Positions 23,684 to 63,475 of a stretch of 64,000 nt of DNA are shown here, in pieces. The translations under genes and the position numbers were made by a program. Below the pieces are notes generated by a model. That model saw nothing but the letters and a program-made list of their open reading frames with translations. It was not told the origin of the DNA and made no database searches. The first letter of the stretch is position 1, and every line of letters begins with the position of its first letter. The DNA is from a virus, in the IMG/VR virus record IMGVR_UViG_3300048573_000442; one strand, given 5' to 3'.

Positions 23684-24061
23684 TTAGTCCTGGCTGGCTA
23701 ATACGCTTCTAATCCACGCAAGTGTAGAAACTGATTGTGGCTGATTTTCAGCATCTTCTAGATCAAACATTTTATTCAAGACCATTTGCGCGAGCCTTAC
23801 GTGTTCTTCGTCCTCTAGGGACTTGACCGCTTCAATAGCATCAGAACTAGTATACATGCCTGACGGAATAGCTTCTCTGGGCCAACGGCTTGGCCCACCG
23901 CCTTTAAACATTGATAGCGCGCCCGCAAGAGTAAAAATTTGAACATTATCGGTTACCTTTCCGTCGGTAACGATTTGCTGCAATGGCATATAAATGTATG
24001 GGGGAATTACACCTTCAATTAGGGAATTGCCGACTTTGGGTTTTAATTCATTCAAACGCAT
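23684..24061 (-). CDS. Late hypothetical protein with an MRLNEL N-terminus
   Basis: 125 aa; AGGAG RBS; TATAAATA at 24094-24101. Confidence 0.65.
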   Translation of the reverse strand: MRLNELKPKVGNSLIEGVIPPYIYMPLQQIVTDGKVTDNVQIFTLAGALSMFKGGGPSRWPREAIPSGMYTSSDAIEAVKSLEDEEHVRLAQMVLNKMFDLEDAENQPQSVSTLAWIRSVLASQD

Positions 24062-24093
24062 GAGTTCTCCTTGGGATAAATAATTTCATCAAG

Positions 24094-24101
24094 TATTTAT
24101 A
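24094..24101 (-). promoter_or_regulatory. T4-type late promoter TATAAATA
   Basis: Exact match 33 nt upstream of ATG 24061. Confidence 0.7.
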
Positions 24102-24118
24102 ACACTATAGGAGTAAAA

Positions 24119-24307
24119 ATGACTTCCCATCCGCCTCGTTCAACCTGGTCTTCATTAGAGCCAGCCAAATTGTATGAAGTCAGGTCATATCTCACGACGA
24201 TTTATTATGACATTCATAAATCAAACCCGCAACTAAGTAAACATTACTTAGCGCTCGTAGATGAATTATCAAACCTAATCCAACTCAGAACTGATCAGCA
24301 TTCTTAA
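24119..24307 (+). CDS. Small hypothetical protein
   Basis: AGGAG RBS directly upstream; occupies otherwise non-coding space. Confidence 0.5.
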   Translation: MTSHPPRSTWSSLEPAKLYEVRSYLTTIYYDIHKSNPQLSKHYLALVDELSNLIQLRTDQHS

Positions 24308-24693
24308 TCGGCATCATTTGGAGCAATGCCGAAAAAGTTTAAAACGATCAGCACGCCCCAAAATTGGAACACCCAAGTAATCCATGAAGCTTTCACAAAG
24401 GTGAAGTGCACTGCTAACTTTATTAGATCTATTACTACAAGGAATGGAATTAGTAGGGCTTCGCCCATATTATTCAAGTTGTTGGCGTAAGCATCAGCAT
24501 ACAAAGTTGGAGCTTTGTAGTTTCTAAAATCTGTCCCGAACATGAAGTCAAACAGCAGACCTACTGCAGTACAGACACTCATAATTAGTAAAACTGCGAC
24601 GAACCTGATGAAGAAATTTAAAGTCTTTTCAAGGCCAGCGCTTGCCATAAAGATAAGTGGAAATGCAATCAAAACCATGAAAAATACAAACAT
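24304..24693 (-). CDS. Membrane protein
   Basis: Several hydrophobic helices. Confidence 0.6.
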   Translation of the reverse strand: MFVFFMVLIAFPLIFMASAGLEKTLNFFIRFVAVLLIMSVCTAVGLLFDFMFGTDFRNYKAPTLYADAYANNLNNMGEALLIPFLVVIDLIKLAVHFTFVKASWITWVFQFWGVLIVLNFFGIAPNDAD

Positions 24694-24833
24694 TTTAAGC
24701 TCCTTTAGATAGAATGTTTAAATTCTATTCTACTTGGAGAAAAAAGTACAATTATTGTTGAACAAAATTGAAACTTCAGAAATCGCTTTTTTAGAAAGGC
24801 GACAATTTTGTTTGGACCAGGTTAAATTTTAAT

Positions 24834-25316
24834 TTAAACCCCTAGATAATCTTTGTAAATTTCCCTAAATGCGGACTTCTCAAATGAATTTCCGCCGATA
24901 GAAACATCTATGTCGGCTATATGCGAAAGGCGATGAAACTTGCCATTTTCATCCTTAAAGAACAAGCCTTTATTCACCCCCAACATTTTTGACTTCAGCT
25001 TTAGCCCATGAACATCTAGGTAACCGGTGCGGTCTTCTGAAGTCTTTACTGAAACTTTATCATCTGGTTGCGGTAAATGCTGCGCCCGATCTATTTTACC
25101 CAAAGCGTTGAATACTTTGCTCGAGGTAGAATATTCTACTTTGACTCCATTGATTTCGTCAATGTCAAAGAAGTATACAAGGATCAAGTCTTTAGAATTT
25201 GGAGAGCGAGCATAAACTGCAGGTCCACCACTTTTATAGTTAGTGTACTCGACTACTTTAAGCTTTTGTTTATCCTTAGTTAGGATAATGTCTTTTTGGA
25301 TTGGTACCACTAGCAT
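24834..25316 (-). CDS. Hypothetical protein
   Basis: 160-aa ORF. Confidence 0.6.
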   Translation of the reverse strand: MLVVPIQKDIILTKDKQKLKVVEYTNYKSGGPAVYARSPNSKDLILVYFFDIDEINGVKVEYSTSSKVFNALGKIDRAQHLPQPDDKVSVKTSEDRTGYLDVHGLKLKSKMLGVNKGLFFKDENGKFHRLSHIADIDVSIGGNSFEKSAFREIYKDYLGV

Positions 25317-25317
25317 G

Positions 25318-25503
25318 TTAATAATCCTCGTCTAGGTCATGTTCTTTAATGTCACGGAGATAATTTTTAAAATTGACGCGGCTTGAACGCTGTTCCAGTT
25401 TATCTTCAGTGATTTCGCGTTTTTTCTTTTTAGGCTTCCTACGCTTTTCTTGGGCATCATAGTCTTGTTCAAAATTTGCGTCAGGTCGATACGGGTGTTT
25501 CAT
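25318..25503 (-). CDS. Small charged hypothetical protein
   Basis: 61 aa, Lys/Arg and Asp/Glu rich. Confidence 0.55.
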   Translation of the reverse strand: MKHPYRPDANFEQDYDAQEKRRKPKKKKREITEDKLEQRSSRVNFKNYLRDIKEHDLDEDY

Positions 25504-25642
25504 TTCTGTTATGTTTGTTGATTTGGGGCAAAATTATCCATTATTGTCAGGGCAAGTCTTATTTTGGCATGTTTGAAAATGCAGAATGGTCGTTCCATTA
25601 TTTTAACGGGCAAAAACGCGTTAAACTTAAAAGTCGGCAAAT

Positions 25643-31796: not shown

Positions 31797-31824
31797 ATTT
31801 TACCCCTAAAAATTCTTAATACTA

Positions 31825-33501: not shown

Positions 33502-34188
33502 TTATCTTACCTTTTCTGCAACGTCAAAGAAATTTGACCCGTCGCGCCTAAGTTCGCCAATTTTGTGCCCGTCTATTTTGTAAGCTGCAGAAGGGATTAA
33601 TTTCCCAGTGTGGGCAACATGTGCTCCTAGAGAAATAAGTTGAAGTTTTTGTTCATCTGTCATTAACGGCAAAAGCTTTTTGCCAGCATGGGCAAACATG
33701 ACATACTCACCGCCTATGAGTTGCGCCCATTGCTTATCGGTTAGTTTTCGTCTTGCCAGAACGTAAAGCCATTGAAGTTTATTTTCAAACTGTTTTTCGG
33801 TTGCTAGTTTAAAGATCATTTCCCCGATGCTATCTTCATCGGGTTGAATATCGACTAAATCTTTGCCGCTAATAATAAAAAGGTAACCAATTCTTTCTTT
33901 CCATCGTAAAGCCATGCTTTTAGACCCTGCAACATCACCTCCCAACGCGTATATTTGGGCGTAGCCTATATCAGGGGTTATATACACTTTACCACTAACA
34001 GGGACGAGGTTTGGTTTTTTAGATGGCGACCTATTAGGCATTACCACATTGCCAGGCTCAATTCCATTTTTTAGAATGGATATGCCAGCTTCTTCTGATG
34101 AAGTGCCGTGATAGTAAACTATTTCCCGATGTGATTCTAATGGCTTAGCCATTTCCATCAGTTCATGTATTAGCATAAATTGCCCCAT
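33502..34188 (-). CDS. ADP-ribosyltransferase-like protein (H-Y-x clade); probable start at 34176 (MLIHELMEM)
   Basis: YYHGTS...ILKNGI...VYITPDIGYAQIYA. Confidence 0.6.
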   Translation of the reverse strand: MGQFMLIHELMEMAKPLESHREIVYYHGTSSEEAGISILKNGIEPGNVVMPNRSPSKKPNLVPVSGKVYITPDIGYAQIYALGGDVAGSKSMALRWKERIGYLFIISGKDLVDIQPDEDSIGEMIFKLATEKQFENKLQWLYVLARRKLTDKQWAQLIGGEYVMFAHAGKKLLPLMTDEQKLQLISLGAHVAHTGKLIPSAAYKIDGHKIGELRRDGSNFFDVAEKVR

Positions 34189-35007: not shown

Positions 35008-35015
35008 TATAAATA
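35008..35015 (+). promoter_or_regulatory. T4-type late promoter TATAAATA
   Basis: Exact match 30 nt upstream of ATG 35045. Confidence 0.7.
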
Positions 35016-35044: not shown

Positions 35045-35584
35045 ATGAAACTACTACAACTACTCGAAAACATGACTTCACAATTTCCTACTTCTAAAGA
35101 AGAGGTTGAAATTGTTCTTAAGAAACACAATATCGAAAATTACAAAATCAACGGCGACCTGTCCGTTGATGTAGATGGAGATGTAGTTTTATTCAACGAC
35201 AAGAAGTTGGTTTCAATTCCTGTCAATTTCGGCAAAGTCAGCGGGCGTTTTAATTGCTATAATAGCCGATTGACTTCTTTAAAGGGCGCACCTAGAGAAG
35301 TTGGTGGGGATTTTTGGTGCGCTGGCAACAAATTAACTTCTTTAAAAGGTGCACCTTTGGAAGTAGGCGGGAATTTTTCGTGCTATAGCAACGAATTAAC
35401 GTCCTTACAAGGTGCACCTAGAGAGATAGTTGGGAATTTTGATTGCTCTCATAACCAATTAACATCCTTACAAGGTGCACCTAGAGAAGTCGGTGGGCAT
35501 TTTGATGCTTTAAAAAACCCGAATTTAAAATCTCTTGACGGAATTGGTACAGTCTATGGAGGAATTTTAACCGATTTAAAATGA
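35045..35584 (+). CDS. 21-residue LRR-like repeat protein (4 repeats plus cap)
   Basis: GGxFxCxxNxLTSLxGAPREV repeats. Confidence 0.85.
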   Translation: MKLLQLLENMTSQFPTSKEEVEIVLKKHNIENYKINGDLSVDVDGDVVLFNDKKLVSIPVNFGKVSGRFNCYNSRLTSLKGAPREVGGDFWCAGNKLTSLKGAPLEVGGNFSCYSNELTSLQGAPREIVGNFDCSHNQLTSLQGAPREVGGHFDALKNPNLKSLDGIGTVYGGILTDLK

Positions 35585-35612: not shown

Positions 35613-36047
35613 ATGAAAATTTCAGAACTTTTTGAATCAAGAGACGAAGCGCAAGTCAAAAAGGATTACATCAGATGGAAACAGCTTGTCAACTTACAGA
35701 CTAAAACGCTTGAAAAATTCCTCGATAGTGAAGAAGGTCGCAAGGCAGGTTTAAGCCCAAAAGAGGCTAAAGCTGCAGGCAACATTAAAACTGGGCGAGG
35801 TTCCGCCCGAGCAATTCTAAGAATGCGCTCTAAGCCATTTAGCGAATGGTCAACTGAAGACATCAATTGGATGTACAGGCAGATTAGCTTTGTGTCAAGG
35901 ATGAGCGGCATGGAAGGCGCACTTTTTAAAGTTGATAAGCACGGAAACAAAAACCCCACACGCAAGCTAACAAGCTTATTGGTGTGGGGTCATAAACCTA
36001 CGGGGATCAAATTTCGGATCGTTGACGGTAAAGTTAAAGTTCTTTAA
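35613..36047 (+). CDS. DUF3140-like protein
   Basis: WKQLVNL...LEKFL...GRGSARAILRM...RQISFVSRM resembles the DUF3140 pattern as recalled. Confidence 0.4.
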   Translation: MKISELFESRDEAQVKKDYIRWKQLVNLQTKTLEKFLDSEEGRKAGLSPKEAKAAGNIKTGRGSARAILRMRSKPFSEWSTEDINWMYRQISFVSRMSGMEGALFKVDKHGNKNPTRKLTSLLVWGHKPTGIKFRIVDGKVKVL

Positions 36048-40185: not shown

Positions 40186-40924
40186 TATAGTGTTTTAAAA
40201 TATCATTGCGAAAAAGTTTATCATCAGCTGAAAGATAGGAACCGGGATGGGAAGCACCTTCCTGAAGAAACTGAATCACTGAATAATTGATGTCCGTAAT
40301 CGGATCATACAGCATTTCGTTTGTAACTAGTTTTGTGGCCTCGACTCCATGTTTACCACCAAGCAGATTTCCAAATAGTAGCATATGGAGCATAAAGTTT
40401 TTTCGCAGGGCATAACACTCTTTAACAATCACGTCTTCTATTTTGCTACTCGAATTTCGGGGGCGAACAATCTTGGAAATTACGCGCAAAGCGACCATTG
40501 CAGTTTCAGCTGCAATGAAATTCTTTTTCGCTTGCTTATATGCAGAAAGCAGAGTGGGCGACGTAACTTGGGAAGAATTTTGCTCAATGCCCATTTGTTC
40601 ACAAAATAGCTGCGTCGGTTCTGCAGAACAAATAAAGATTGGGCTAAGCTCTTTACTTCGCAAAAAATTCTGTTCAATTTTGAAAAGCTCTGCTAATTCA
40701 ATAATGTCATCATCTTGCGTAAGGTCTAGATATGACACACCTTTCAAATTGTATTCTGCAAACTTAAACAGTTCGGCTTTTATGTCCTGTTGGTACAGCT
40801 TTCGCATATCCTCATGTTCAGGGCGAATTACATCTAGTACGTAACTCACCAACGAATCAACGATTTTAAAACGCCGCGTTTTCACTTCGCATGGATGCCC
40901 CAGTTGCAAAAAATCCTGCCTCAT
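40169..40924 (-). CDS. Hypothetical protein
   Basis: 251-aa ORF. Confidence 0.6.
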   Translation of the reverse strand: MRQDFLQLGHPCEVKTRRFKIVDSLVSYVLDVIRPEHEDMRKLYQQDIKAELFKFAEYNLKGVSYLDLTQDDDIIELAELFKIEQNFLRSKELSPIFICSAEPTQLFCEQMGIEQNSSQVTSPTLLSAYKQAKKNFIAAETAMVALRVISKIVRPRNSSSKIEDVIVKECYALRKNFMLHMLLFGNLLGGKHGVEATKLVTNEMLYDPITDINYSVIQFLQEGASHPGSYLSADDKLFRNDILKHYNELTA

Positions 40925-41088
40925 TTAAAATCCCCATGTTTAAAGTTGTGCGCGGCAACGCGGTTGCGATGTTTTTGCTTGTCTTCAGCTCGGTCCTCTT
41001 TAACAGGCTTAATTTTTTGTTTTTGCTTATGGCGTACTTCGACGGCATCATCAAAATCATAGAGATCAACAAATTTTTTGAAATTCAT
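40921..41088 (-). CDS. 55-aa basic protein (missing from the ORF track)
   Basis: Manual translation MNFKKFVDLYDFDDAVEVRHKQKQKIKPVKEDRAEDKQKHRNRVAAHNFKHGDFK*; ATGA overlap with the next gene. Confidence 0.6.
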   Translation of the reverse strand: MNFKKFVDLYDFDDAVEVRHKQKQKIKPVKEDRAEDKQKHRNRVAAHNFKHGDFK

Positions 41089-43086: not shown

Positions 43087-43119
43087 TTCATTCCTTTAAA
43101 TAACGCCCTTTACAAAGAG

Positions 43120-43149: not shown

Positions 43150-43161
43150 TGTTATTTGTTT

Positions 43162-47538: not shown

Positions 47539-48060
47539 TTAAACGAACGCTTCGACTACATAATACCAATAGGCATCTGAATCTGTTTCATCCGCATCCC
47601 CTGGATCGTCAGGTTCATAAATTTTAATAACGCGTCCTTTTACGCCTTTACGCATCATGAATTCATCCTGTACATTCTCGGGATGACCCGGACTGCTATG
47701 TTTTATCGATCTTCCCCATGAATGACCAGATGGCAACCTAATTTCAAAAATTGCCACATTTTCACTCGGCGTATCAAAATTGCCAGGTAGAATTACGCCT
47801 TGAATAACTCCATCTACACTGTTGCTGGTAGATTGAGCAAACTGCCACACTCCCCCAATTTTTAATTCTTGGATTGCACGTTTAGCCTTTTTACCAATTT
47901 CGGCACGGTAAACCACGCGAGGTTCTTTAAGAGGCGGTGATTCGTCAATCCATTTATCTAACTCTTGGCTTGGTATCGCTGCCTCAATCCATTTATCTAT
48001 AAAGTCTTGAATGTTTTCTGATTCAGTTACAGTTCGTAGGAGTTGATATTTTTTAATCAT
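47539..48060 (-). CDS. R-S-E clade ADP-ribosyltransferase (Alt/Mod-like catalytic domain)
   Basis: VVYRA, QSTSNS, IFEI, QDEFMMRKG. Confidence 0.7.
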   Translation of the reverse strand: MIKKYQLLRTVTESENIQDFIDKWIEAAIPSQELDKWIDESPPLKEPRVVYRAEIGKKAKRAIQELKIGGVWQFAQSTSNSVDGVIQGVILPGNFDTPSENVAIFEIRLPSGHSWGRSIKHSSPGHPENVQDEFMMRKGVKGRVIKIYEPDDPGDADETDSDAYWYYVVEAFV

Positions 48061-48856: not shown

Positions 48857-49033
48857 TCAGTGCCACTTATCTTCTTTTCCGCTTGGATCCGTCAGACGGA
48901 GATCTACGTACTCTGTAGATCCTTTATCGAAGCCCTTAATAAAGGCTATACATTCGGAACGCGTGCCAGAGAAAATCTTCTTTTCATTTGATTGCTGAAT
49001 TACTGAAAAAGCTGCCAGTTCTTTTAGCTTCAT
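48857..49033 (-). CDS. Small protein MKLKEL... (start revised to 49033)
   Basis: ATGA overlap with the upstream gene and a GGAG RBS. Confidence 0.55.
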   Translation of the reverse strand: MKLKELAAFSVIQQSNEKKIFSGTRSECIAFIKGFDKGSTEYVDLRLTDPSGKEDKWH

Positions 49034-49626
49034 ATGTCTCCATCCGTAAAGACGATAAACGGGATCAACACTGGATCTACCCATTCTTTTACATTCTTTT
49101 TAGTATTTGGAACGAATCTTCTATCTTTTGTTCCTATCGATTCTATAATCAGTCTAAATGATGGCTCCGAATATGCGTCGATGTCCAAAATTTTATTATT
49201 GAATAAGTCTAAGGTCCTAACGCTAAATTTTTTCCGAAGACTTTCCCAAAATGCTTTTGATGATGCAGTTTGTAAATCATCTGAAACGACTTGCATTTTC
49301 ATGAACTCTTTTAGGAATCTGACAAGAGCTGACAGAAAACCTTTATTCCTCACGTCTGGCCTTGTCCAACTTCTAGCAATTATCGCGGAATCTCTTCCTA
49401 AGATCACTTGTTCTTTTATTATTAAGTATGAAGAAACGCCCTTCTCATCCTCATTGAAGAAAACATAATGGTCTTCTTCATTATAAATGGTGCTCATAGC
49501 ATAAATTTCACGATGATCTGATTCGCCCATGAATTTTTTATTTGCTGCCATCTCTTTTGTTATCTGAAAAAATGAATCTGATGCCTGTGGGATCATTGCT
49601 ATTTCCTTTAATTCATATGTCTCCAT
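49030..49626 (-). CDS. GNAT acetyltransferase, paralogue 1 (start ambiguous)
   Basis: RSWTRPDVRNKGFLSAL...VVSDDLQTASSKAFWESL. Confidence 0.78.
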   Translation of the reverse strand: METYELKEIAMIPQASDSFFQITKEMAANKKFMGESDHREIYAMSTIYNEEDHYVFFNEDEKGVSSYLIIKEQVILGRDSAIIARSWTRPDVRNKGFLSALVRFLKEFMKMQVVSDDLQTASSKAFWESLRKKFSVRTLDLFNNKILDIDAYSEPSFRLIIESIGTKDRRFVPNTKKNVKEWVDPVLIPFIVFTDGDI

Positions 49627-50203
49627 CTGTAAAGACGATTAACGGGATCAACACTGGGTCTACCCATTTATTAGTATTTTTCTTCGTATTGGGTTTTAAC
49701 CCCTCGCGCATTATAGAACTTCTCGACTCTATAATAAGACGGTAGGATGGGAGCGAATAAGCATCCGCATCTATGATTGCATTGCTATTAACATCCAGCG
49801 TTTTAACTTCAAATTTTTTCTTAAGGCTGTCCCAAAACATTTTTGAGGACAGTGTTTGAAGATTATCAGAAACAACTTGCATTTTCAAAAAATCTCTGAT
49901 AAATTTTACAATCGCTGATAAGTATCCCTTATTTCTAACATCCGGTCTAGTCCAGCTCCTAGCAATGATAGCTGCATCTCTACCAAAGATATTATCTTCT
50001 CGAACTATCAAATATGAAGAGACGCCCTTCTCATCCTCATTGAAGAAAACAAAATGCGGTTCACTTTCATGAATTATAGAGGTAGAGTAAATTTCACGAT
50101 GATCTGATTTGCCCATGAACATCTTATTTGAGACCATATCTTTGGTTACCTGAAAAAATGAATCTGATGCCTGTGGGATCATTGTTATTTCCCTTAAATT
50201 CAT
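49613..50203 (-). CDS. GNAT acetyltransferase, paralogue 2
   Basis: RSWTRPDVRNKGYLSAI...VVSDNLQTLSSKMFWDSL. Confidence 0.78.
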   Translation of the reverse strand: MNLREITMIPQASDSFFQVTKDMVSNKMFMGKSDHREIYSTSIIHESEPHFVFFNEDEKGVSSYLIVREDNIFGRDAAIIARSWTRPDVRNKGYLSAIVKFIRDFLKMQVVSDNLQTLSSKMFWDSLKKKFEVKTLDVNSNAIIDADAYSLPSYRLIIESRSSIMREGLKPNTKKNTNKWVDPVLIPLIVFTDGDI

Positions 50204-50796
50204 ATGTCTCCATCACCAAAATAAATATACGGCTTCAGAAATGGTTCTTTCCATTGGCCACTATGTTTTTTATTATGGTGTATAAATCCTTCTCCCAATC
50301 TAATAGTTCCAGACTCAATTATTAGTCTATAATTATCATGTTTATAAGCTGAGTAGATATCGCCATCAAATATCCCCTTCGTTGTGAAATTTAACAATCT
50401 GACTTTGAATTTTTTAGATAATGAAACCCAAAAAGCTTGTGAAGATGGTGTATGTTCGCTGTCAGAAACAACTTGCATTTTCAAAAAATCTCTGATAAAT
50501 TTTACGAGTGCCGAAAGATACCCCTTATTTCTTAGCGCTTTTCTTGTCCAACTCCTCACTATAATGGCTGCATCCCTGTCATTAATAGCTTCTTCGTAAA
50601 GAACCAAGTAAGAAGAAATACCATCTTCATCTTTATTAAAAAAGATGAAATATTTCCTATCATTTGTAAACGAACAAGAATAAATTTCACGATGATCTGA
50701 TTTGCCAATGAATTCACCGTGATTGGCAATTGTTTCTGGCAAATCAAAAACATGTTCCGAATTACCCGGAATTAATTTTATTTCATCAAGCTTCAT
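50200..50796 (-). CDS. GNAT acetyltransferase, paralogue 3
   Basis: RSWTRKALRNKGYLSAL...VVSDSEHTPSSQAFWVSL. Confidence 0.78.
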   Translation of the reverse strand: MKLDEIKLIPGNSEHVFDLPETIANHGEFIGKSDHREIYSCSFTNDRKYFIFFNKDEDGISSYLVLYEEAINDRDAAIIVRSWTRKALRNKGYLSALVKFIRDFLKMQVVSDSEHTPSSQAFWVSLSKKFKVRLLNFTTKGIFDGDIYSAYKHDNYRLIIESGTIRLGEGFIHHNKKHSGQWKEPFLKPYIYFGDGDI

Positions 50797-51680
50797 TCTA
50801 ATTCTGTGGGAATCGGCAAATTATTTTTCTTTAACTCCTTAGAAGCCTTTTCAAGTATTTTATCAGCGCCTTCCATTTTATCCTTGATCTGCTTGATAAC
50901 GTCTTCGGCAGTCATTATATCTTTTGCTTTGACGCCGTCACCAAAGATAAATGCTGCGACTTTGTCTGGCACGTTGATAATACCAGCATCTTTTTCAAAT
51001 TCGATATTTTTTCCAACCTGTTTCAAGTGTGAAGCCAATTCATCGGCTGTCACTTTCTCCAGCGTTTTGTTTGTCTTCCCAGTCTTTGGGTTATATTTTG
51101 CCCGTTTAAATAAGCGCTCCATGCCTGTATCAAGTTTAATTGACCTGGATGCCCTTGCAGTAATGTTTCCATCTGCATCACGCTCAACGAAATCTTTTCC
51201 AACTTCCTGAACAAATGACAACGCAGTAAACAGGATAATATTTCTCACTGCTCCAGGATATTTTGATCCTCGACCATCTGCAGAATGATAAATGAACTTC
51301 GCCCATTCTTTACTGCTAACAAACATCAGGTCTACTTGAACTTTTTTGCCATTTACTGGAACTGCATAAGATCCAATTTTTGAACCTTGATTCCAATAGC
51401 CGTTGTTATCTACTGCTGCCAACATTTTCTTGTTGATTTCAGAATAATTATCTCCATCAATTTCCACGGCAATATCAACATCGCCAGATGACTCTCGTTT
51501 GCCAAGCAGAGTAAGCTCTGTGGAACCGAGTAATGAAGATTTTAATTCCTGTTCTGGAATTTTAATAATAGACGAAACATATTTTAAAGCTGCAGAAATA
51601 TCTGCCTGTTTTGCACGCGAAGTTCCGTACTTCTCCGTTGCGTGGCCGCCTTCTGTGAGGAATTGTTTAAATGAAATCAT
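50793..51680 (-). CDS. Pol-beta superfamily nucleotidyltransferase
   Basis: LLGS...SGDVDIAV...KVQVDLMF (hGS, DxD, third Asp). Confidence 0.72.
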   Translation of the reverse strand: MISFKQFLTEGGHATEKYGTSRAKQADISAALKYVSSIIKIPEQELKSSLLGSTELTLLGKRESSGDVDIAVEIDGDNYSEINKKMLAAVDNNGYWNQGSKIGSYAVPVNGKKVQVDLMFVSSKEWAKFIYHSADGRGSKYPGAVRNIILFTALSFVQEVGKDFVERDADGNITARASRSIKLDTGMERLFKRAKYNPKTGKTNKTLEKVTADELASHLKQVGKNIEFEKDAGIINVPDKVAAFIFGDGVKAKDIMTAEDVIKQIKDKMEGADKILEKASKELKKNNLPIPTELE

Positions 51681-52338: not shown

Positions 52339-53046
52339 TTAAATCACACCTTCAATTCGACCGGCAACATTGCCGATTCCGTCGAGAGAGGTCAAATTTG
52401 GATTACAACGGCAATTAAAAGTCCCACCGACTTCTCTAGGCGCACCCTGTAAAGAAGTTAATTGGTTATAAGAGCAGTTAAAATCCCCACTCACTTCTCT
52501 AGGCGCTCCTTGTAAAGAAGTCAGATAGTTAGCAGAGCAATTAAAATGCCCTCCTACTTCCCTAGGAGAACCTTGTAAGGATGCTAATTGGTTATGATAA
52601 CAGTAAAAATCTTCACCGACTTCTTTAGGAGAACCATGTAAGGATGTTAATTGGTTATGAGAGCAATCAAAATCTTTACCAACTTCTCTAGGCGAACCCT
52701 GTAAAGAAGTTAATTGGTTATGATAGCACCAAAAACTCCCGCCTACTTCTCTTGGTGCATCTTGCAAAGAAGTTAATTGGTTGGCAGAGCACCAAAAATC
52801 CCCACCAACTTCTTTGGGAGCACCTCCCAAAGAAGTTAATTCGTTGCTATAGCACCAAAAATGCCCGCTGACTTTGCCGAAATTGACAGGAATTTGTTCT
52901 AATTGCCTATGATGCAAATCCACACCCCCATCAACATCAACAGACATGTCATCATTGATGGTGTAGTTCTCAATCCCGTGTTTCTTTAGGATAGATTCTA
53001 CTTCTTGTTTAGAAGCAACTGATTCAAATACCTGTTTTAATTTCAT
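52339..53046 (-). CDS. LRR-like repeat protein (7 repeats plus cap)
   Basis: 21-aa / 63-bp repeats GGxFxCxxNxLTSLQGAPREV. Confidence 0.85.
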   Translation of the reverse strand: MKLKQVFESVASKQEVESILKKHGIENYTINDDMSVDVDGGVDLHHRQLEQIPVNFGKVSGHFWCYSNELTSLGGAPKEVGGDFWCSANQLTSLQDAPREVGGSFWCYHNQLTSLQGSPREVGKDFDCSHNQLTSLHGSPKEVGEDFYCYHNQLASLQGSPREVGGHFNCSANYLTSLQGAPREVSGDFNCSYNQLTSLQGAPREVGGTFNCRCNPNLTSLDGIGNVAGRIEGVI

Positions 53047-53813
53047 GATAGGTCGCCTTCAATTCGACCAGCTACATAGCCTATTCCGCCAAGTGAGGCC
53101 AAATCTGAGTTATCAGAGTAAATAAAATCTCCGCCTACTTCCTTAGGAGCGCCCTGCAAAGAGGTTAATTCGTTGCTGCGGCAGAAAAAATGCCCACCCA
53201 CTTCTCTAGGCGCGCCTTCTAGGGATGTTAATTGGTTGTAAGAGCAATTGAAGCTCCCACCAACTTCTCTAGGTGCACCTTGTAAGGACATTAATTCATT
53301 ATAAGAGCAATCAAAAACCCTACCAACTTCCCTAGATGCGCCTTGTAAAGAAGTTAATTTGTTGTGATAACAATAAAAACTTCCACCTACTTCCCTAGGT
53401 GCACCTTGTAGGGATGTTAATTGGTTGCCAGAGCAATTAAAAGCCCCGCCTACTTCTCTCGGTGCACCTTGCAAAGAAGTTAATTTGTTGTGATAGCAAT
53501 CAAAACTCCCTCCGACTTCTCTTGGCGCGCCTTGTAAAGAAGTTAATTGGTTATGATAGCAGTAAAAATGCCCGCCTACTTCTCTAGGTGAACCTTGTAA
53601 AGAAGTTAATTGGTTATGAGTGCAATCAAAATGCCCACTGACTTTGCCGAAATTTACAGGAATCGAGCTCAGCTCCACGCTGCGTAAATCCACGTCCCCA
53701 TCAACATCAACAGACATGTCATCATTGATGGTGTAGTTCTTAATCCCGTGTTTCTTTAGGATAGATTCTACATCCTGCTTAGACGCTGATTCAAATACTT
53801 GTTTTAATTTCAT
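53043..53813 (-). CDS. LRR-like repeat protein (8 repeats plus cap)
   Basis: Same 21-aa repeat. Confidence 0.85.
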   Translation of the reverse strand: MKLKQVFESASKQDVESILKKHGIKNYTINDDMSVDVDGDVDLRSVELSSIPVNFGKVSGHFDCTHNQLTSLQGSPREVGGHFYCYHNQLTSLQGAPREVGGSFDCYHNKLTSLQGAPREVGGAFNCSGNQLTSLQGAPREVGGSFYCYHNKLTSLQGASREVGRVFDCSYNELMSLQGAPREVGGSFNCSYNQLTSLEGAPREVGGHFFCRSNELTSLQGAPKEVGGDFIYSDNSDLASLGGIGYVAGRIEGDLS

Positions 53814-54499
53814 GATAGGTCACTTTTAATTTGTCCAGCTACATTGCCGATTCCGTCAAGTGAGGTCAAATTTGGGTTATCAGAGCAATTAAAATCACCA
53901 CCGACTTCTTTAGGCGCACCCTGTAAAGAAGTTAATTGGTTATAAGAGCAATTAAAATCCCCACTCACTTCTCTAGGCCCGCCTTGTAAGGAAGTTAATT
54001 GGTTATGATAGCACCAAAAACTCCCGCCTACTTCCCTAGGTGAACCGTGTAAAGAGGTCAATTTGTTACTATTACAGTAAAAATCCCCGCCGACTTCTCT
54101 AGGTGCGCCTTGTAAAGATGTTAATTGGTTGTGAGAGCAAATAAAATCTCCATCGACTTCTCTTGGTGCGCCTTGCAAAGAGGTTAATTCGTTACTATAG
54201 CACCAAAAACTCCCGCCTACTTCCCCAGGTGAACCTTGCAAGGATGTTAATTTGTTGGCAGAGCAGTTAAAATCCCCACCTACTTCTTTAGGTACACCTT
54301 GTAAAGCGGACAATTGGTTGCTATAGCACCAAAAATGCCCGCTGACTTTGCCGAAATTGACAGGAATTTGTTCTAATTGCCTATGATGCAAATCCACGTT
54401 TCCATTAACATCAACCGACAAGTCATCGTTAATGACATAGTTCTTAATCCTGTATTTCTTAAGGATAGATTCTACATTTTGCTTAGAAGGTGCTGTCAT
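53810..54499 (-). CDS. LRR-like repeat protein (7 repeats plus cap)
   Basis: Same 21-aa repeat. Confidence 0.85.
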   Translation of the reverse strand: MTAPSKQNVESILKKYRIKNYVINDDLSVDVNGNVDLHHRQLEQIPVNFGKVSGHFWCYSNQLSALQGVPKEVGGDFNCSANKLTSLQGSPGEVGGSFWCYSNELTSLQGAPREVDGDFICSHNQLTSLQGAPREVGGDFYCNSNKLTSLHGSPREVGGSFWCYHNQLTSLQGGPREVSGDFNCSYNQLTSLQGAPKEVGGDFNCSDNPNLTSLDGIGNVAGQIKSDLS

Positions 54500-57715: not shown

Positions 57716-58363
57716 TTAAAGTAGTCCTGGGACAGATTCACGGTGCCTTCGTAGGCTAAATGATGAACGTACATTTAACAAGTTTGTGACATCCTCAGAC
57801 AGCACAAATTGGTATCTTGCAAAATCAGTATCATTTGCAAAAAATAAAGTTAATTCGTCTGCGTTATCAAAAGTCTTAAATGATTTGCCTGGATCTTCCG
57901 CATCATAAACTGAAATTCTGTGGCCGCGTTTAACTAAACTCTTCCAGACGTTAAAACCCTCATCACTTAAAAATTTATCACTTTTGATACGTAAGCTTTC
58001 TGAAGAATCTTTTAAAATGGCCGCATACAAATCACTTGCAAATGGTGCTTGTCCTTTTAAGTTTCGGTCTTTACCAAGCATCGTAACAACGAGTGCTTCA
58101 CTTTCTTTTTTAAGCTCGACAGCAATTTTTGTTTCTTTGCCATCAGAAGAACCTATCCAATAAAGCATGGTAGTTCCGACATCTATAACGAAAAGATTAT
58201 CTTTTACTAAACGCGGTATTATTCCGAATTTTAAAAAGTCTTTAATAGAATAAGTAAGAGCATCCAAAGTTTCAAACTGGCCTAGGCCAGATGGCATTTC
58301 TTTTAGCCAAGTTTCAACAAATGATTTCCTTGAGTCTATGTTGAAGATTTCATTTAGGTTCAT
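57716..58363 (-). CDS. Divergent GNAT-like protein
   Basis: LGKDRNLKGQ...ASDLY...KSDKFLSDEGFNVWKSL shares the SD-x3-T/S-x2-G-x2-vW-x2-L motif. Confidence 0.55.
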   Translation of the reverse strand: MNLNEIFNIDSRKSFVETWLKEMPSGLGQFETLDALTYSIKDFLKFGIIPRLVKDNLFVIDVGTTMLYWIGSSDGKETKIAVELKKESEALVVTMLGKDRNLKGQAPFASDLYAAILKDSSESLRIKSDKFLSDEGFNVWKSLVKRGHRISVYDAEDPGKSFKTFDNADELTLFFANDTDFARYQFVLSEDVTNLLNVRSSFSLRRHRESVPGLL

Positions 58364-58693
58364 TTAAAATTGCTGGTTTTTTAACTTTTTGCCTATAGTC
58401 GCTTGTTTATTTTTATTTGGCGGTTGACCAGTTCCGATGTCATCATGGGAAAATACCCCATACAAATAGCAAAACCCGCCCTCAATTTTATAAATGATGC
58501 TTATATCAAAAGAAAGCTTTGCATGCCAGAAGCCTGCAAAATGACCTGACGCAGAAAAAGCATAATCACTTGACCCAAACTTGTCCCGAGGCGTCGCATG
58601 TTTGAAAACCATGAATTCTTTAATCTTATTCTTGACAGATGCCTCCTGCTTGCCAAGCGTCTTTTCATAAAATTTACAAGTTTTGAAAATCAT
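58364..58693 (-). CDS. RelE/YafQ-like mRNA interferase toxin
   Basis: DYAFSASGHFAGFWHAKLSFDISIIYKI...LYGVFSHDD. Confidence 0.65.
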   Translation of the reverse strand: MIFKTCKFYEKTLGKQEASVKNKIKEFMVFKHATPRDKFGSSDYAFSASGHFAGFWHAKLSFDISIIYKIEGGFCYLYGVFSHDDIGTGQPPNKNKQATIGKKLKNQQF

Positions 58694-58839
58694 TACAGGC
58701 CAAGCTCTTCAATCATCTGCTCAAGAGTTTTGCCTTCAGACCATTCAATAGGTTCCTGCATAAGCTCAGGCGCATTCAATCCTTCTTTTTCCAAGGCTTG
58801 GACAATTTTAGATTCCTGAAGAAAGTGATCGAAGTTCAT
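58693..58839 (-). CDS. 48-aa acidic protein, candidate antitoxin (missing from the ORF track)
   Basis: MNFDHFLQESKIVQALEKEGLNAPELMQEPIEWSEGKTLEQMIEELGL*; AGGA RBS; TAATG overlap with the toxin. Confidence 0.55.
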   Translation of the reverse strand: MNFDHFLQESKIVQALEKEGLNAPELMQEPIEWSEGKTLEQMIEELGL

Positions 58840-58882: not shown

Positions 58883-59446
58883 TTATTGCAGGTGGAAGTA
58901 AACCTGTTTGCGTCGCTGCAATATTTCGTGTTCAAGTGCTTTCTTTTTTACTGTGCCGAGTAATTCTTTGGTTGCTACTAAAGCTGTGCCTCCAAACCAC
59001 TTAATCGAAAAACGATATTCCCATGGCCGTAACCCATAAATCTTAGACAGTAGAATGCGCTTGTAGAAAGAAATCCTATTTTCTTGACCGGCTTCAACTA
59101 AAAACACGATAGCATCTATTTGCATGGTTCGGGAAAGTTCTTCGACCTTATCTGTTAATGCAGAAACAACTGCGCCGATCTGTTTCGATTGGCTTGTCCG
59201 GGTATTTAGCATTGCCTGAGTAGCTTCCCCGTCAACAATCCTGGCAAACGCAATGTTTAAAAAAATTAAAGGTTCCCCGTCAACAGAGAAAGAAGACCCC
59301 TCTAAGTACAAGCGAAACTCCTCTTTGTTTATGACTGCTTTTGCTTGATAATTACCGCTGTAAGTTTCCCACTCTATAGAATCAAATTTAGTGTCAAATG
59401 CTTCATTAAGGTTGACGAAGTCGCCAAATAAATTTGAAAGTTTCAT
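58883..59446 (-). CDS. Hypothetical protein, paralogue family A copy 1
   Basis: NEAF.T.F.SI.W...LNIAFAR...QSKQIGAV...IDAIVF...GLRPWEYRFSI. Confidence 0.7.
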   Translation of the reverse strand: MKLSNLFGDFVNLNEAFDTKFDSIEWETYSGNYQAKAVINKEEFRLYLEGSSFSVDGEPLIFLNIAFARIVDGEATQAMLNTRTSQSKQIGAVVSALTDKVEELSRTMQIDAIVFLVEAGQENRISFYKRILLSKIYGLRPWEYRFSIKWFGGTALVATKELLGTVKKKALEHEILQRRKQVYFHLQ

Positions 59447-59546
59447 TAGAAGTTCTCAATCATTTTTGTTTTTCTGTCTGTTCGAGTAGCAAATAAGATG
59501 CTGGTTACATCTTTCGGGAGATTATAGTTTAGAAGATTTCTTAGTT

Positions 59547-60087
59547 TTATTTATTAGTAATTATCTCTTGCTTCATTGCTTCTATAAATTGCGGGCCTAA
59601 ATCTTTTTCGGTTGCAATCAACGCAGTTCCATTTTTCAACTCAATCGAGAATCTGTACTGCCAAGGTTTAATGCCGTAAATTTTGGACAACATGATTCGT
59701 TTATAAAGGGGGTATTCTTTTCTCTTCGCCGCTTTTAACCGTAAAAACAACTGCATCAATTTCAAATTCAGAAACCAGTTCTCGTAATTTTCTATTAAGT
59801 GCGTTAATTACTGCACCAAGCTGTCGTGATTGATTTTGCCCAGTCGGGAACAAATCCTGCTTAAATTCTCCATCCACTTTTCTCGAAAAGGCAACATTTA
59901 CCCAATACCTTTTTGAGCCGTTTATTATAGTAGCTGATGGCTCTATGTACAGGCCGAATTCTTCATCATTCAATACCCCAGCCCCGATTAATCCAGTTGG
60001 GGTGTTATCCCATAAAATAGATGTGAAGTCCGTGTTAAACGCTTCCGTTATGTTTATTAAGTCTGGGAATAATGTGGTAAGTTTCAT
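59547..60087 (-). pseudogene. Family A copy 2, split by a +1 frameshift at 59708-59712
   Basis: Both halves align to copy 3; AGA ATA CCC CCT TTA TAA has one extra base versus AGA ATT TCC ATT TAT AAA. Confidence 0.75.
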
Positions 60088-60626
60088 TTGGTTCCAGAAG
60101 TTATCTCTTGCTTCATTGCATCTATAAATTGCGGGGCTAAATCTCTTTCGGTTGCAATCAACGCCGTTCCTCTGTCCCACTCAATCGAAAACCTGTACTG
60201 CCATGGCCTTATGCCGTAAATTTTGGACAACATAATCTGTTTATAAATGGAAATTCTCTTTTCCTGTCCCTTCTCGACAGTAAAAACAACTGCATCAATT
60301 TCAAATTCAGAGACCAGTTCTCGTAATTTTCTATTAAGTGCCTTAATCACGGCTCCGAGTTGCCTTGATTGATTAGAGCCAGTAGAAAACAAATCCTGTT
60401 TTAATATACCATCTACTTTTCTCGAAAAGGCGACATTTACCCAATTTTTTTGAATACCATTTAGCACGAACATTGAAGGCTGCAAATAAAGTTCAAATTC
60501 TTCTTCATCTAAAATTGCTGAACCAATTAATCCAGTATCGGTATTTTTCCAATTGATTGAAGCGAAGTCTGTGTTAAAAACTTCGGTTATGTTTATCATG
60601 TTTGGGAATAATGTGGTAAGTTTCAT
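60084..60626 (-). CDS. Family A copy 3
   Basis: MKLTTLFP.INITE...QSRQLGAV...YGIRPWQYRFSIEW. Confidence 0.75.
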   Translation of the reverse strand: MKLTTLFPNMINITEVFNTDFASINWKNTDTGLIGSAILDEEEFELYLQPSMFVLNGIQKNWVNVAFSRKVDGILKQDLFSTGSNQSRQLGAVIKALNRKLRELVSEFEIDAVVFTVEKGQEKRISIYKQIMLSKIYGIRPWQYRFSIEWDRGTALIATERDLAPQFIDAMKQEITSGTK

Positions 60627-60642: not shown

Positions 60643-60999
60643 CTATTTTGCTGTATTTGCTTGGTCTTTAGGCTTCCACATCTTTGCAAATTTTAAAACG
60701 TTTGGGATTATCTCACTTGGCAAAACTACAGCACAAGCGGGTTCAGCGTTCAGCGTATTGTTTTCATGGCCTAAATGACATTCAAGCTTACTGATCTTTT
60801 CAAACTCTTTTCTATTAACGCGCAACACTACCTTCTTAAAACTTTCATTTAGCCACCTGTCATAATCTTCGTTTCCCGAAAATTTAAGATGTGCTGCCAA
60901 AACTGAATGCGCAACAAGAGTTGGAACCATAAAATCTGGAAATTCGTCTAGAACGGCGATATACATTTTAATCGTGCTCATAATTATCCTTAATCCCAT
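60643..60999 (-). CDS. Pth2-like peptidyl-tRNA hydrolase
   Basis: KMYIAV...TLVAHSVL...WLNESFKKVVLRV. Confidence 0.7.
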   Translation of the reverse strand: MGLRIIMSTIKMYIAVLDEFPDFMVPTLVAHSVLAAHLKFSGNEDYDRWLNESFKKVVLRVNRKEFEKISKLECHLGHENNTLNAEPACAVVLPSEIIPNVLKFAKMWKPKDQANTAK

Positions 61000-61580
61000 G
61001 TAGGTAGTGAGTTGCAGCCTCTAAATTTTCGCATTTCTTTGACTATAGGATGTTCGAACATGTCGTTATAAGTCGACCATCCGCCGATTATCGCAATCTG
61101 TAATTCATTAGGAAAAGAAAATAATCTTTTTGAGTCTATTTCTACTATTGCACCATTATCAATCATCGCCATTTTAAATGATTTGCGCTCTATCATTTTC
61201 TTGAAAAGCTTTTCACCGTCTCCTGTGACTAACGGGCCAGATGTTAGTGCAAGTTTCATTTTGCTAACAATAAAACCAATTATGCAAACTATAAGGGCTT
61301 TACCTCGATGTTTTTCATGTACCCAAACTTTTACAATTTCTGAAAATCTCTGCCCATTAATTATTTTCGCATCGGTGGAAATAACCACCATTGCGATCGG
61401 CATGATTCCGTTTTCGCTGATACAAAACGTATCCATTTTGTCGCCATACGCCCTAGACCCCCAAATTTCAAAACCATCGAAGGTTCCGATTATTTTGGAA
61501 TAAGATTGAAGATTTGGCAAATCCCGTTCCCCAAATTCAAAATCTACTGCGCGTTCTTCGAATATGTCAGATAGTTTCAT
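60990..61580 (-). CDS. GNAT acetyltransferase (start revised to MKLSDIFEE)
   Basis: KVWVHEKHRGKAL...SGPLVTGDGEKLFKKM. Confidence 0.7.
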   Translation of the reverse strand: MKLSDIFEERAVDFEFGERDLPNLQSYSKIIGTFDGFEIWGSRAYGDKMDTFCISENGIMPIAMVVISTDAKIINGQRFSEIVKVWVHEKHRGKALIVCIIGFIVSKMKLALTSGPLVTGDGEKLFKKMIERKSFKMAMIDNGAIVEIDSKRLFSFPNELQIAIIGGWSTYNDMFEHPIVKEMRKFRGCNSLPTWD

Positions 61581-61666
61581 GTTTACTAATTCGTGTTTGA
61601 GCAAAACGGCAGCTTCTTCCTCCGTCAAGCATTTTGCTGTTTAAATAACATCTGCTAAAACAAAAA

Positions 61667-61686
61667 GGGACCCTCCGAAGGGTCCC
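61667..61686. terminator. Intrinsic terminator (UCGG loop on the minus strand)
   Basis: GGGACCCT-CCGA-AGGGTCCC with flanking A/T runs. Confidence 0.8.
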
Positions 61687-61715
61687 CTTATTTATCTTCT
61701 GATTTTGAGCTTTTA

Positions 61716-61826
61716 TCAAGCGTATTCGGCGCCTTTGTAAAGGTCCGCTAAATGTTCCTTATGGCATACGACAATCTCTTGTCCATAATGGCAAGAGCTA
61801 TTTGCATGTTGGCGATAGAAGCTCAT
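61716..61826 (-). CDS. Putative 36-aa peptide
   Basis: AAGGA RBS then MSFYRQHANSSCHYGQEIVVCHKEHLADLYKGAEYA*. Confidence 0.35.
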   Translation of the reverse strand: MSFYRQHANSSCHYGQEIVVCHKEHLADLYKGAEYA

Positions 61827-61906
61827 TGTCGTTCCTTAACAATTGGAAATTAGCTTAAGCGAAATTTAGACATTGTTTTTATTTTTCGCCCTAGTGTTAA
61901 AGAACT

Positions 61907-62449
61907 TTAACGAAACTGCTTGAGCGCAGTGTTAGCTCCATCGATATATACTTTGAAATATGGATTGGGATATTCCTTGTTCGCTGGCCGATTAAAAACT
62001 TGCAACTTAACTTTATTAAGTTTATTTTGCTTGTTCCATTCCTTTGTGCTTGCTTTTACTGCATCCAATTCTTCTTGGGAAACAATTGTTTTTATAAGCC
62101 TCGTTCCAATTTCTTCATCAGTATCATGCCGTCGCATAGCATCATTTAAGGTCTTACGAAGATCTTGAACCAATTTCAAAAAATCGGCCCTAGAAACAAC
62201 TTTTTCACCTGCCATGACTGTTTTAATGTCACTTGCCTGGATTAGTTCCTGAGCAGCAAGCGAATGCATATTTGCAAAACGTTCTATCGCGTCAATCGCC
62301 TTTTTGGAGTTGATTCCGTTTTTAGCACCCCATTCGCGTTTTACGGCTTCTTTGTCAAAAGTGCTATTAACGATTTGTGAAATATAATCGGTCGCTTCAA
62401 GCATACTAGGATTTTTATATGCCTCATTCAATTCGCGCAATAATTTCAT
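61907..62449 (-). CDS. Hypothetical protein with an MKLLRELNE N-terminus
   Basis: 180-aa helical ORF. Confidence 0.65.
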   Translation of the reverse strand: MKLLRELNEAYKNPSMLEATDYISQIVNSTFDKEAVKREWGAKNGINSKKAIDAIERFANMHSLAAQELIQASDIKTVMAGEKVVSRADFLKLVQDLRKTLNDAMRRHDTDEEIGTRLIKTIVSQEELDAVKASTKEWNKQNKLNKVKLQVFNRPANKEYPNPYFKVYIDGANTALKQFR

Positions 62450-62471
62450 TTTTGTCTTTCAAAGTTAAGAG

Positions 62472-62855
62472 TTAAGAACCGTCTGCTTCCATGACTTCAG
62501 TATCCAGCGGCCAAGGACCGGTAAATTTCTGATACTGCTTAATGTGATCGTAGCGGTCATTTGCAGCGGCATGTTGAGTAATTTTGTTTGCAACAGTTTC
62601 TGCAACGTCATTTGAAGCATAAGTTGCAACACATGCCCAACCTCCTTTATGGGCTCGCATCATGCGCTCTTGGGCCTTTGCTGATGATAGACCAACTGAA
62701 GACATTAGCGCTTCCTGAACCACCTGAAACGGTGTTACGGGGTTGTTTAGGATCATTACGTTAAAGCCGCCAGGTTTATTGAGTTCGACCTCTTTGGGGC
62801 TGGCAGTCATTTTTGGCGGGCGGATAATAGTTTCAAGTTCTTGAAGTAGTTTCAT
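62472..62855 (-). CDS. clpS: ClpS-like adaptor protein
   Basis: VMILNNPVTPFQVVQEAL...AQERMMRAHKGGWACVATY...AET. Confidence 0.72.
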   Translation of the reverse strand: MKLLQELETIIRPPKMTASPKEVELNKPGGFNVMILNNPVTPFQVVQEALMSSVGLSSAKAQERMMRAHKGGWACVATYASNDVAETVANKITQHAAANDRYDHIKQYQKFTGPWPLDTEVMEADGS

Positions 62856-62884
62856 GGTGTTTCCTGGTTATTTAATTTGGGATG

Positions 62885-63475
62885 TTACGGAAGTGTTCGT
62901 TTTCTGGCTTCATTTGCCTTTTTATAAAATTGCGCTAATGGACCGCTTACGTTTTTTGCAGCCTTTGCCAATTCTACTACATTTTTTGCAACAAACATCG
63001 CAGCAACAATCGGCGCCAAAATTGGAAAAATGATCGAAACGATCCAGACTATAATTTTTTCTGTGACTTCATTTTCAAAAACCTGTTTGATTACAGCCTT
63101 AATTGCCCTGTTCACAGAAACTAACAACTTCAATACTGCCAGTTTTTTGATATTATTTCTTGATAACTCTACGCCATCTAACTTTACCTTATTTATCATA
63201 AGAATTTTATCATACATTTCCTTAATTTTTGGGTATTTCATATCAGAATACATGACGTTAAATTCTTCTTTGGCCTTACGGTATTCAACTCCGATGACTC
63301 TATCATTCAGCTCGCTCTTTTTTCCAGAGGATGCCATAATGGCCCGCATAGTTTTAAAAAAATCTATGAAGCCATCGCCCAAACCTTCACAAAGGACGTT
63401 TAATTCTTTAGAGCCGTTTGTAGCCTCATTTATCTCTTTAAAACCCCCAGGATCAATAATTTCACGTAATAGCAT
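62885..63475 (-). CDS. Hypothetical protein with a C-terminal hydrophobic segment
   Basis: 196 aa; TATAAATA at 63504-63511. Confidence 0.65.
   Translation of the reverse strand: MLLREIIDPGGFKEINEATNGSKELNVLCEGLGDGFIDFFKTMRAIMASSGKKSELNDRVIGVEYRKAKEEFNVMYSDMKYPKIKEMYDKILMINKVKLDGVELSRNNIKKLAVLKLLVSVNRAIKAVIKQVFENEVTEKIIVWIVSIIFPILAPIVAAMFVAKNVVELAKAAKNVSGPLAQFYKKANEARKRTLP

Follow-up and report, generated by a model that had tools for sequence, protein, structure and literature searches.

T4-like candidate capsid targeting peptides at the N-termini of about 15 accessory protein families in an IMG/VR virus

Introduction

The internal proteins (IPs) of phage T4 are diverse and have only a short N-terminal capsid targeting sequence (CTS) in common, a principle that has already been stated in the literature (PMC3012670, PMC9026906). 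The first ten residues of IPIII are enough for packaging, residues 4 and 7 of the CTS drive targeting and residues 8 and 10 processing, the prohead protease gp21 cuts after L/I-x-E, and fusion to a CTS suffices by itself for packaging and delivery (PMC9026906). Here we describe short N-terminal peptides ("tags") that resemble this sequence on accessory proteins encoded in IMG/VR virus record IMGVR_UViG_3300048573_000442, a stretch of 64,000 nucleotides analysed as a whole (the window). A preliminary description, made from the letters alone, had proposed that about 23 unrelated proteins encoded between positions 23,684 and 63,475 carry such a peptide and form an injected set of effectors.

The closest described parallel is provided by T4 IPI, IPII and IPIII, whose leader (MKTYQEFIAE) is removed by gp21. 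As in T4, the window tags are ~5 to 20 residues long, end in (L/I)-x-E and have hydrophobic residues at i and i+3, the mature proteins are otherwise unrelated, and their genes are scattered in accessory regions with late-promoter-like motifs upstream. The leader of IPI, MKTFKEF...ITE/A (here and below a slash marks the cut, which in the window proteins is a predicted one), parallels the long tag of one window family, family C. In contrast to the three IPs of T4, there are ~15 tagged families in 40 kb of the window; the dominant tag is one residue shorter, with Leu/Ile instead of Tyr/Phe, and the predicted cargo consists mostly of enzymes and binders, whereas that of T4 is made up of small basic proteins. 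T4 also packages and injects the ADP-ribosyltransferase (ART) Alt, which is trimmed by gp21 at both ends and whose N-terminus, MELITELFDE, resembles the MK-x-x-ELFE tags of the window. Candidate ART-like proteins are found within the tagged set but, unlike Alt, they are small (173 and 224 aa) and have no sequence match to it, the ART call coming only from motifs read by eye and an embedding look-alike. Within the T4 genome (NC_000866), gene 61.1 (18966-19130, 54 aa), annotated only as hypothetical, starts with MKTFKEFIKE, a near-perfect copy of the T4 CTS.

In phiKZ, 201phi2-1 and SPN3US, ejection or inner-body proteins are cut after Glu by distant gp21-like proteases, with ~19 proteins cleaved in 201phi2-1 (PMC9026906, PMC5694885). 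What the window would share with these phages is a large number of different head proteins with propeptides that are cut after Glu and ejected into the cell. The phiKZ-like sites, however, are S/A-x-E, there is no short universal N-terminal tag and the head modules are not T4-like, whereas the window tags have L/I/V at P3 and its relatives carry Portal_T4, Peptidase_S77 and Gp23. Loading in the Dar system of phage P1, an unrelated lineage, follows a hierarchy of partner proteins and not a shared cleavable peptide. The likeness here is that DarA/Hdf-dependent anti-restriction and anti-defence proteins are packaged in the head and injected (PMC9024508, PMC12810830). In the literature searched, no T4-like phage was described as having dozens of tagged enzymes.

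Results

A shared N-terminal peptide

All 23 of the start coordinates originally listed give the peptides quoted for them, and one further tagged member, 49626 (METYELKE/I), was absent from that list (genes are named by their start coordinates). In 23 of these 24 open reading frames (ORFs) an [LIV]-x-E ends at residue 5-16, the exception being 41088. Because the proteins had been picked by eye, the tag was tested with models built elsewhere. A position matrix was trained only on N-termini of G001, a complete IMG/VR genome of 368 kb that has terminal repeats and is syntenic with the window, and the matrix threshold was set at the 99th percentile of internal Met-started 9-mers. This matrix flagged 23 of the 110 N-termini in the window, where 1.1 would be expected; 20 of the 23 lie right of 23.6 kb, and 18 of those had been listed by eye. 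At a score of at least 7 there were ten matches in 23.6-64 kb, none among the 34 N-termini in 1-23.6 kb and none among 530 control N-termini, comprising 221 from T4 (bases 1-135,000, which contain all known head and IP genes; the last 34 kb were left out) and 309 from the Xanthomonas phage BUDD. The reverse matrix, trained on 13 window family representatives, flagged 23 of the 570 N-termini of G001 where 0.6 were expected. The enrichment over ORF N-termini that had been suggested as a check is present in both cross-genome comparisons. A generic bias in N-terminal composition was ruled out, there being no strong matches among the T4 and BUDD N-termini. Taken alone, the bare [LIV]-x-E is only ~2-fold enriched (17/70 against a background of 12%).

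The claim of 23 unrelated proteins stands in part: the tags exist, but they are spread over ~15 sequence families. Three of these are paralogue families, namely the leucine-rich repeat (LRR) proteins (35045, 53046, 53813), family B (49626, 50203, 50796) and family C (59446, the broken 60087, 60626), and two tags, those of 41088 and 48060, fail the G001-trained matrix and are weak or doubtful. No DNA repeat common to unrelated tagged genes was found, the only repeats in the window search being the paralogues, which rules out a common 5′ DNA cassette as the source of the tags. Moreover, the codons of the tags differ between genes while the residues are kept; together with the lack of a common repeat, this points to selection of the likeness at the peptide level. 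As had been claimed, the tag is missing from the core enzymes (topoisomerase, thymidylate synthase, DHFR, helicase and RNA ligases) and from the cluster at 9.7-22.6 kb. The tagged genes, with one untagged paralogue, are as follows (scores are those of the G001-trained matrix).

23684..24061, minus strand: 125-aa protein; tag MRLNE/LK with a second site, L-I-E/G, at residues 14-16; TATAAATA at 24094-24101
33502..34176, minus strand: 224-aa candidate ADP-ribosyltransferase; tag MLIHE/LME/M; score 14.0; CATAAATA ~35 nt upstream
35045..35584, plus strand: 179-aa LRR-family paralogue; tag MKLLQLLE/N; score 12.7; TATAAATA at 35008-35015
35613..36047, plus strand: 144-aa DUF3140 protein (Pfam PF11338 from residue 22); tag MKISELFE/S; score 16.3
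40921..41088, minus strand: 55-aa ORF, a doubtful member; MNFKKFVD, with residues 1-22 free of [LIV]-x-E; fails the matrix
41197..41571, minus strand: 124-aa GNAT (Pfam Acetyltransf_10, E=4.8e-6); T4-pattern tag MTNSKSFRQFIKE/Q
41581..43086, minus strand: 501-aa ATPase (phrog_1250); tag MKLIDLHE/S; CATAAATA 51 nt upstream
47539..48060, minus strand: 173-aa ART-like protein; weak tag MIKKYQLLRTVTE/S; fails the matrix
48857..49033, minus strand: 58-aa ORF directly after the last family B copy; tag MKLKE/L; score 5.9
49030..50796, minus strand: family B, three tandem paralogues (198, 196 and 198 aa); tags METYELKE/I, MNLRE/I and MKLDE/I
50793..51680, minus strand: 295-aa predicted pol-beta-type nucleotidyltransferase; true T4-type CTS MISFKQFLTE/G; AATAAATA 33 nt upstream
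52339..53813, minus strand: two LRR paralogues (235 and 256 aa, starts 53046 and 53813); tag MKLKQVFE/S; score 11.3
53810..54499, minus strand: untagged LRR paralogue (229 aa), first of the tandem trio; starts MTAPSKQ..., aligned to residue 9-10 of the tagged sisters
57716..58363, minus strand: 215-aa ORFan without a Pfam or PHROG family match; tag MNLNE/IF; score 11.9
58693..58839, minus strand: 48-aa protein; T4-pattern tag MNFDHFLQE/S; AATAAATA 47 nt upstream
58883..60626, minus strand: family C, comprising 59446 (187 aa), the broken 60087 (59701-60087 and a piece at 59547-59756) and 60626 (180 aa)
60990..61580, minus strand: 196-aa GNAT-like protein (motif A by eye); tag MKLSDIFE/E; highest score, 16.5
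61907..62449, minus strand: 180-aa ORFan; tag MKLLRE/LNE/A; weak score, 1.0
62472..62855, minus strand: 127-aa ClpS-like protein (Pfam ClpS, E=6.7e-13, domain from residue 27); tag MKLLQE/LE
62885..63475, minus strand: 196-aa protein; tag MLLRE/II; score 7.8; TATAAATA at 63504-63511

Classical and derived forms of the tag

Three genes have the classical form, aromatic-x-x-aromatic-[LI]-x-E: 51680 (MISFKQFLTE), 58839 (MNFDHFLQE) and 41571 (..SFRQFIKE), whose F..FI.E matches the T4 CTS pattern with an offset of three residues. A regular expression for this form recovers T4 ipII and ipIII and finds six BUDD proteins, including the products of small genes that flank gp21 (MKFEDYLAE and MRFEEYLAE). 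Among 120 homologues of the 51680 protein (50-100% identity), F4 is conserved in 98%, K5 in 93%, F7 in 93%, L8 in 94% and E10 in 99%, and position 9 in only 25%. The conserved F4, F7, L8 and E10 are exactly the positions found by mutagenesis in T4. In an AlphaFold model of this 295-aa protein (pLDDT 89.9), residues 1-10 (pLDDT 44) are the only low-confidence segment.

A derived form is commoner, M-[KNRL]-[LI]-x-[EDQ]-[LIV]-[FLH]-E (for example MKISELFES, MKLKQVFES, MKLIDLHES and MKLSDIFEE), whose Leu/Ile at positions 3 and 6 have the same i, i+3 spacing as positions 4 and 7 of the T4 CTS. The DUF3140 family shows it widely, with 45 of 51 homologues starting M-[KR]-[ILV]-x-[EQ]-[LIV]-[LF] and the spacer between tag and domain varying from ~15 to 50 residues; two variants from this family, MKVAELLTE/A and MKLHELFE/A, differ by one residue and bridge the derived form to the T4 pattern. 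Family C carries a long form, MKLTTLFPDLINITE/A, with the pattern MKL..LF......[LI]-[NT]-E/[AV]. We infer from position and context that the derived form is equivalent to the T4 CTS. The likeness to that sequence, as first proposed, holds well: three genes have the T4 pattern proper, and the derived form is also present on small genes in those head modules of relatives that encode a gp21-type protease.

The tag as a separable module

All tags begin at Met1 and the Pfam domains start later, at residue 27 in the ClpS-like and residue 22 in the DUF3140 protein. The ATPase 43086 and its G001 orthologue, which starts MKLFDIFE/A, both have MKL..[LI].E even though their first 130-260 residues no longer align, and a third orthologue, that of L003 (MKLLAF...ELKE/A), also has MKL, followed at another distance by an L-K-E site. 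In the 24061 protein, M1, L3, E5, K7, L14 and E16 are invariant in 12 homologues; its orthologue in G001 begins with MKLTEIK and has a late-promoter-like motif too. The G001 orthologue of the ClpS-like 62855 starts MRKLHFKEFVE/L. Conversely, tags are gained or lost between homologues. The window genes 38695 and 57353 are untagged and their G001 orthologues are tagged (MSSLFELLEIAE/V.. and MKLLEIAMP.., respectively), the DUF3140 homologue P0179 has no tag, and the LRR paralogue 54499 lacks exactly the tag, starting just past the predicted cut of its tagged sisters. A G001 homologue exists for only four tagged genes, against ~40% of the untagged genes in the same stretch, a scarcity which would fit accessory genes of fast turnover.

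Tagged ORFs in the head modules of relatives

The window is mostly minus-strand with ~39% G+C, and encodes T4-type topoisomerase II subunits, RnlA/gp63-like and RnlB-like RNA ligases, a UvsW-type helicase, PhoH and thymidylate-synthase-family enzymes. Megablast of two 20-kb window pieces against GenBank phages returned no close DNA relative, and an exact 46-mer had no match in IMG/VR or the JGI metagenome contigs; the gp39 homologue of the window is nearest to those of Xanthomonas phages BUDD and X1 (60% identity). BUDD has its head genes in the same order as T4 (portal, core proteins, gp21, scaffold, capsid); G001, BUDD and 38 related contigs all have a T4-type head module with Peptidase_S77. 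In G001, Portal_T4, Peptidase_S77 and Gp23 are found at 351-360 kb, and ORFs that lie among the portal, protease, scaffold and capsid genes or directly follow them start MLVCELLE, MLIQDLLNISE/A, MLVRELLE/A, MLVRELLQE, MLLEELK and MLTRELLSE. The window-trained matrix matched 5 of the 20 N-termini in this head region and 18 of 550 elsewhere in G001 (~10-fold, p=7e-4). At least seven further related IMG/VR head modules carry the tag on small ORFs, MKLLQEML being one of the starts; these modules include the following.

L036 head module: MKIKELVE, MLLNEIK
L038 head module: MKLTDLHE
L040 and L041 head modules: MLIKQLL, directly after the protease gene
L043 and L044 head modules: MKVAELFE, MLINEIF, MKLLKELMVLSE, MKVSQLLNE
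L057 head module: MKLLQEMLALVE
L064 head module: MILRELIALTE

The small head-module ORFs of G001 have no PHROG (or Pfam) family match. Many late structural genes, among them portal, capsid and tail-fibre genes, lack the tag. The proteases of the relatives begin ..ILIE/H or ..LLIE/H, like the LLIE-9 site of T4 gp21 (PMC9026906), and this resemblance suggests that the specificity of the prohead protease is conserved between these phages and T4. The virion proteomics of phage XacN1 was considered as a test set and dropped, the structural genes of XacN1 being Rak2-like and its data consisting only of gel-band identifications in a figure.

In the relatives, many of the ORFs that separate the protease gene from the scaffold gene have a second conserved motif at the N-terminus, ..L-(R/K)-(K/R/Q)-L-A-G-(I/L)-P.. 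and then (L/I/V)-x-E (L036-L063 and G001 head modules; for example L030:15023-16360, L041:8000-8722, L045:7612-8246 and L048:7606-8991). This motif may be another core-docking peptide, and it is found in no window protein.

Late-promoter-like motifs

The late promoter of T4 is TATAAATA. Six exact copies are present in the window, three of them ~30 nt upstream of the tagged genes 24061, 35045 and 63475 and one upstream of the tail-fibre gene, where the late-promoter-like motif lies at 82 nt. Of the 23 tagged genes, 7 have the motif NATAAATA (ATAAATA) at -15 to -60, compared with 2 of the 81 other genes (Fisher p=3e-4); in the seven tagged genes it lies 23-51 nt upstream. The same tendency is weaker in G001 (7/47 tagged genes versus 33/523 others, p=0.04), where the motif is also present upstream of the protease gene, and two orthologue pairs have both tag and late-promoter-like motif in common. 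Just upstream of the ATPase gene 43086, at 43105-43150, a perfect 9-bp stem (ACGGCCTGC/GCAGGCCGT) carries CATAAATA in its loop.

Predicted cargo

The functions first assigned to the cargo are reasonable, if of uneven strength: GNAT 41571 and ClpS 62855 are called by Pfam, the ATPase by phrog_1250, the LRR proteins by weak Pfam/PHROG matches, the nucleotidyltransferase by fold, and the ARTs only as a lead or by eye. For 34176 there is a YYHGTS motif and, by embedding (Atlas), Arr/DarT/PARP-type look-alikes at 0.92-0.94, a lead only; Pfam, PHROGs and a PDB sequence search returned nothing. The motifs Y-R-A, S-T-S and Q-D-E of 48060 (R-S-E ART-like) were read by eye, as was the GNAT-like motif A of family B, for which no relatives were found in IMG/VR. 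The GNAT-like 61580 protein is a distant relative of family B, and 49033 has only the leader in common with it. The 51680 protein has a GS...DxD signature, and its best Foldseek matches are family X polymerases (E ~5e-5, with a TM of only 0.31-0.35). Pfam and PHROGs gave nothing for most of the tagged ORFans.

The LRR paralogues (52339-54499 and 35235-35486) contain repeats of 63 nt (21 residues), of which the three tandem genes together have 16 copies in register. The middle copy of family C is split into a 128-aa ORF from 60087 and the piece at 59547-59756; because of this frameshift or stop relative to its neighbours, it is either a pseudogene or an assembly error. Among the untagged genes, the large topoisomerase II subunit is in pieces at 31187-33450, with ORFs of 541 aa, 49 aa (31647-31796) and 130 aa (31187-31579), all three of which align to one 684-aa G001 protein.

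Discussion

Taking the set as a whole, we would give odds of roughly 65% that the tags act as capsid targeting propeptides and that the majority of the tagged proteins are loaded into the prohead, trimmed by a gp21-type protease and injected. For the three classical tags the same reading is, by informal estimate, highly probable. The model starts from what was observed, that is the tags, how specific and conserved they are, their association with the head modules of relatives, and the late-promoter-like motifs, and it proposes docking, cleavage, packaging and injection. Short propeptides would dock proteins onto the scaffolding core of the assembling prohead, a gp21-family prohead protease would then cut the tag after the Glu of (L/I/V)-x-E, and the mature protein would be left inside the head and ejected with the DNA. 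The tag would have been put in this way on ~15 accessory families, including GNAT-like, ART-like, pol-beta-type nucleotidyltransferase, LRR, ClpS and ATPase proteins as well as ORFans.

Several points weigh against this interpretation, the basis of which is sequence comparison. The derived form has Leu/Ile at 3 and 6 and lacks the T4 aromatics at 4 and 7, several of the predicted cuts fall after residue 5, giving a tag shorter than the 10-residue minimum of T4, and [LIV]-x-E alone carries little information, occurring in 12-19% of random windows. The gp21-type protease and the head genes are known from relatives and not from this phage's own DNA, and the tagged ORFs in the head modules of those relatives belong to no known family, so that their role as core proteins is assigned from position only. 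Most tagged genes lack a promoter motif of their own, and those downstream in tight arrays could be co-transcribed; some lie in tight operons with enzymes that are early in T4, 48060 even overlapping a thymidylate-synthase-like gene. The 63475 protein has a hydrophobic, membrane-like C-terminal segment. Lastly, one of the window's proteins is on record on a contig of ~198 kb, and for that length the number of tagged genes seems high.

Could the pattern reflect nothing but the duplication of some families and a low-complexity motif that the eye happened to select? Nine listed ORFs do belong to three paralogue families, the bare L-x-E is only 2-fold enriched and two members are weak. However, ~13 non-homologous families still score, the cross-genome matrices perform 20- to 40-fold over controls, not one of the 530 control N-termini gave a strong match and there is no DNA repeat in common, so that an origin by paralogy and chance is largely refuted and very improbable. 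A lineage-specific N-terminal signal with some other role is easier to entertain, though still unlikely; it might be a feature of translation initiation or late mRNA, a degradation signal (N-degron) tied to the phage ClpS, or a signal for other intracellular targeting. A Lys codon at position 2 and an A-rich start commonly enhance translation; there is a ClpS gene within the tagged set, and the commoner tag is without the T4 aromatics. Such a role sits poorly with residues that are kept while codons vary, with conserved positions that are hydrophobic plus a Glu in protease register around a free middle position, and with a motif that T4 and BUDD N-termini in general lack; moreover, the tag is enriched in head modules and is absent from many late structural genes (tail fibre, portal and capsid).

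A further explanation would accept recognition by the prohead protease or core but not delivery, the tagged proteins being either transient core or scaffold-like parts that are degraded, or zymogens timed to late activation. In T4, gp22, gp67 and gp68 are prohead-core or scaffold components that are degraded and expelled, and the tag is found on small head-module ORFs whose T4 counterparts are such degraded core proteins (PMC9026906). Many of the tagged proteins also have further internal [LIV]-x-E sites. Yet the set includes folded enzymes (GNAT, ClpS, nucleotidyltransferase and ATPase) in which a single N-terminal tag precedes an intact domain, the architecture of T4 IPs and Alt and not that of scaffold, and a CTS fusion needs nothing more for packaging and delivery in T4 (PMC9026906). 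We therefore consider non-delivery improbable, and prefer the reading as injected head proteins.

The T4 principle of a shared CTS and the abundance of cleaved ejection proteins in phiKZ-like phages are known; the scale, the cargo and the tag variant predicted here are new. It is possible, and we put it forward only tentatively, that a widespread uncultured lineage of large T4-like phages has made the T4 head-loading tag a general delivery signal for dozens of enzymes and binders. If true, the set of proteins that a phage injects could be read from its sequence alone, in the way that bacterial effectors are recognised by their secretion signals. Should the tags work as in T4, injected phage proteins could be found in metagenomes by a simple sequence rule, and the derived form would extend the range of sequences known for capsid targeting peptides, with which foreign proteins are loaded into T4 heads. 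Injected proteins are likely to be early factors of host takeover and anti-defence, and many of those here are ORFans. If the tags work as they do in T4, a large and diverse set of ready-made enzymes, far beyond the handful of T4, would be delivered to the host at infection.

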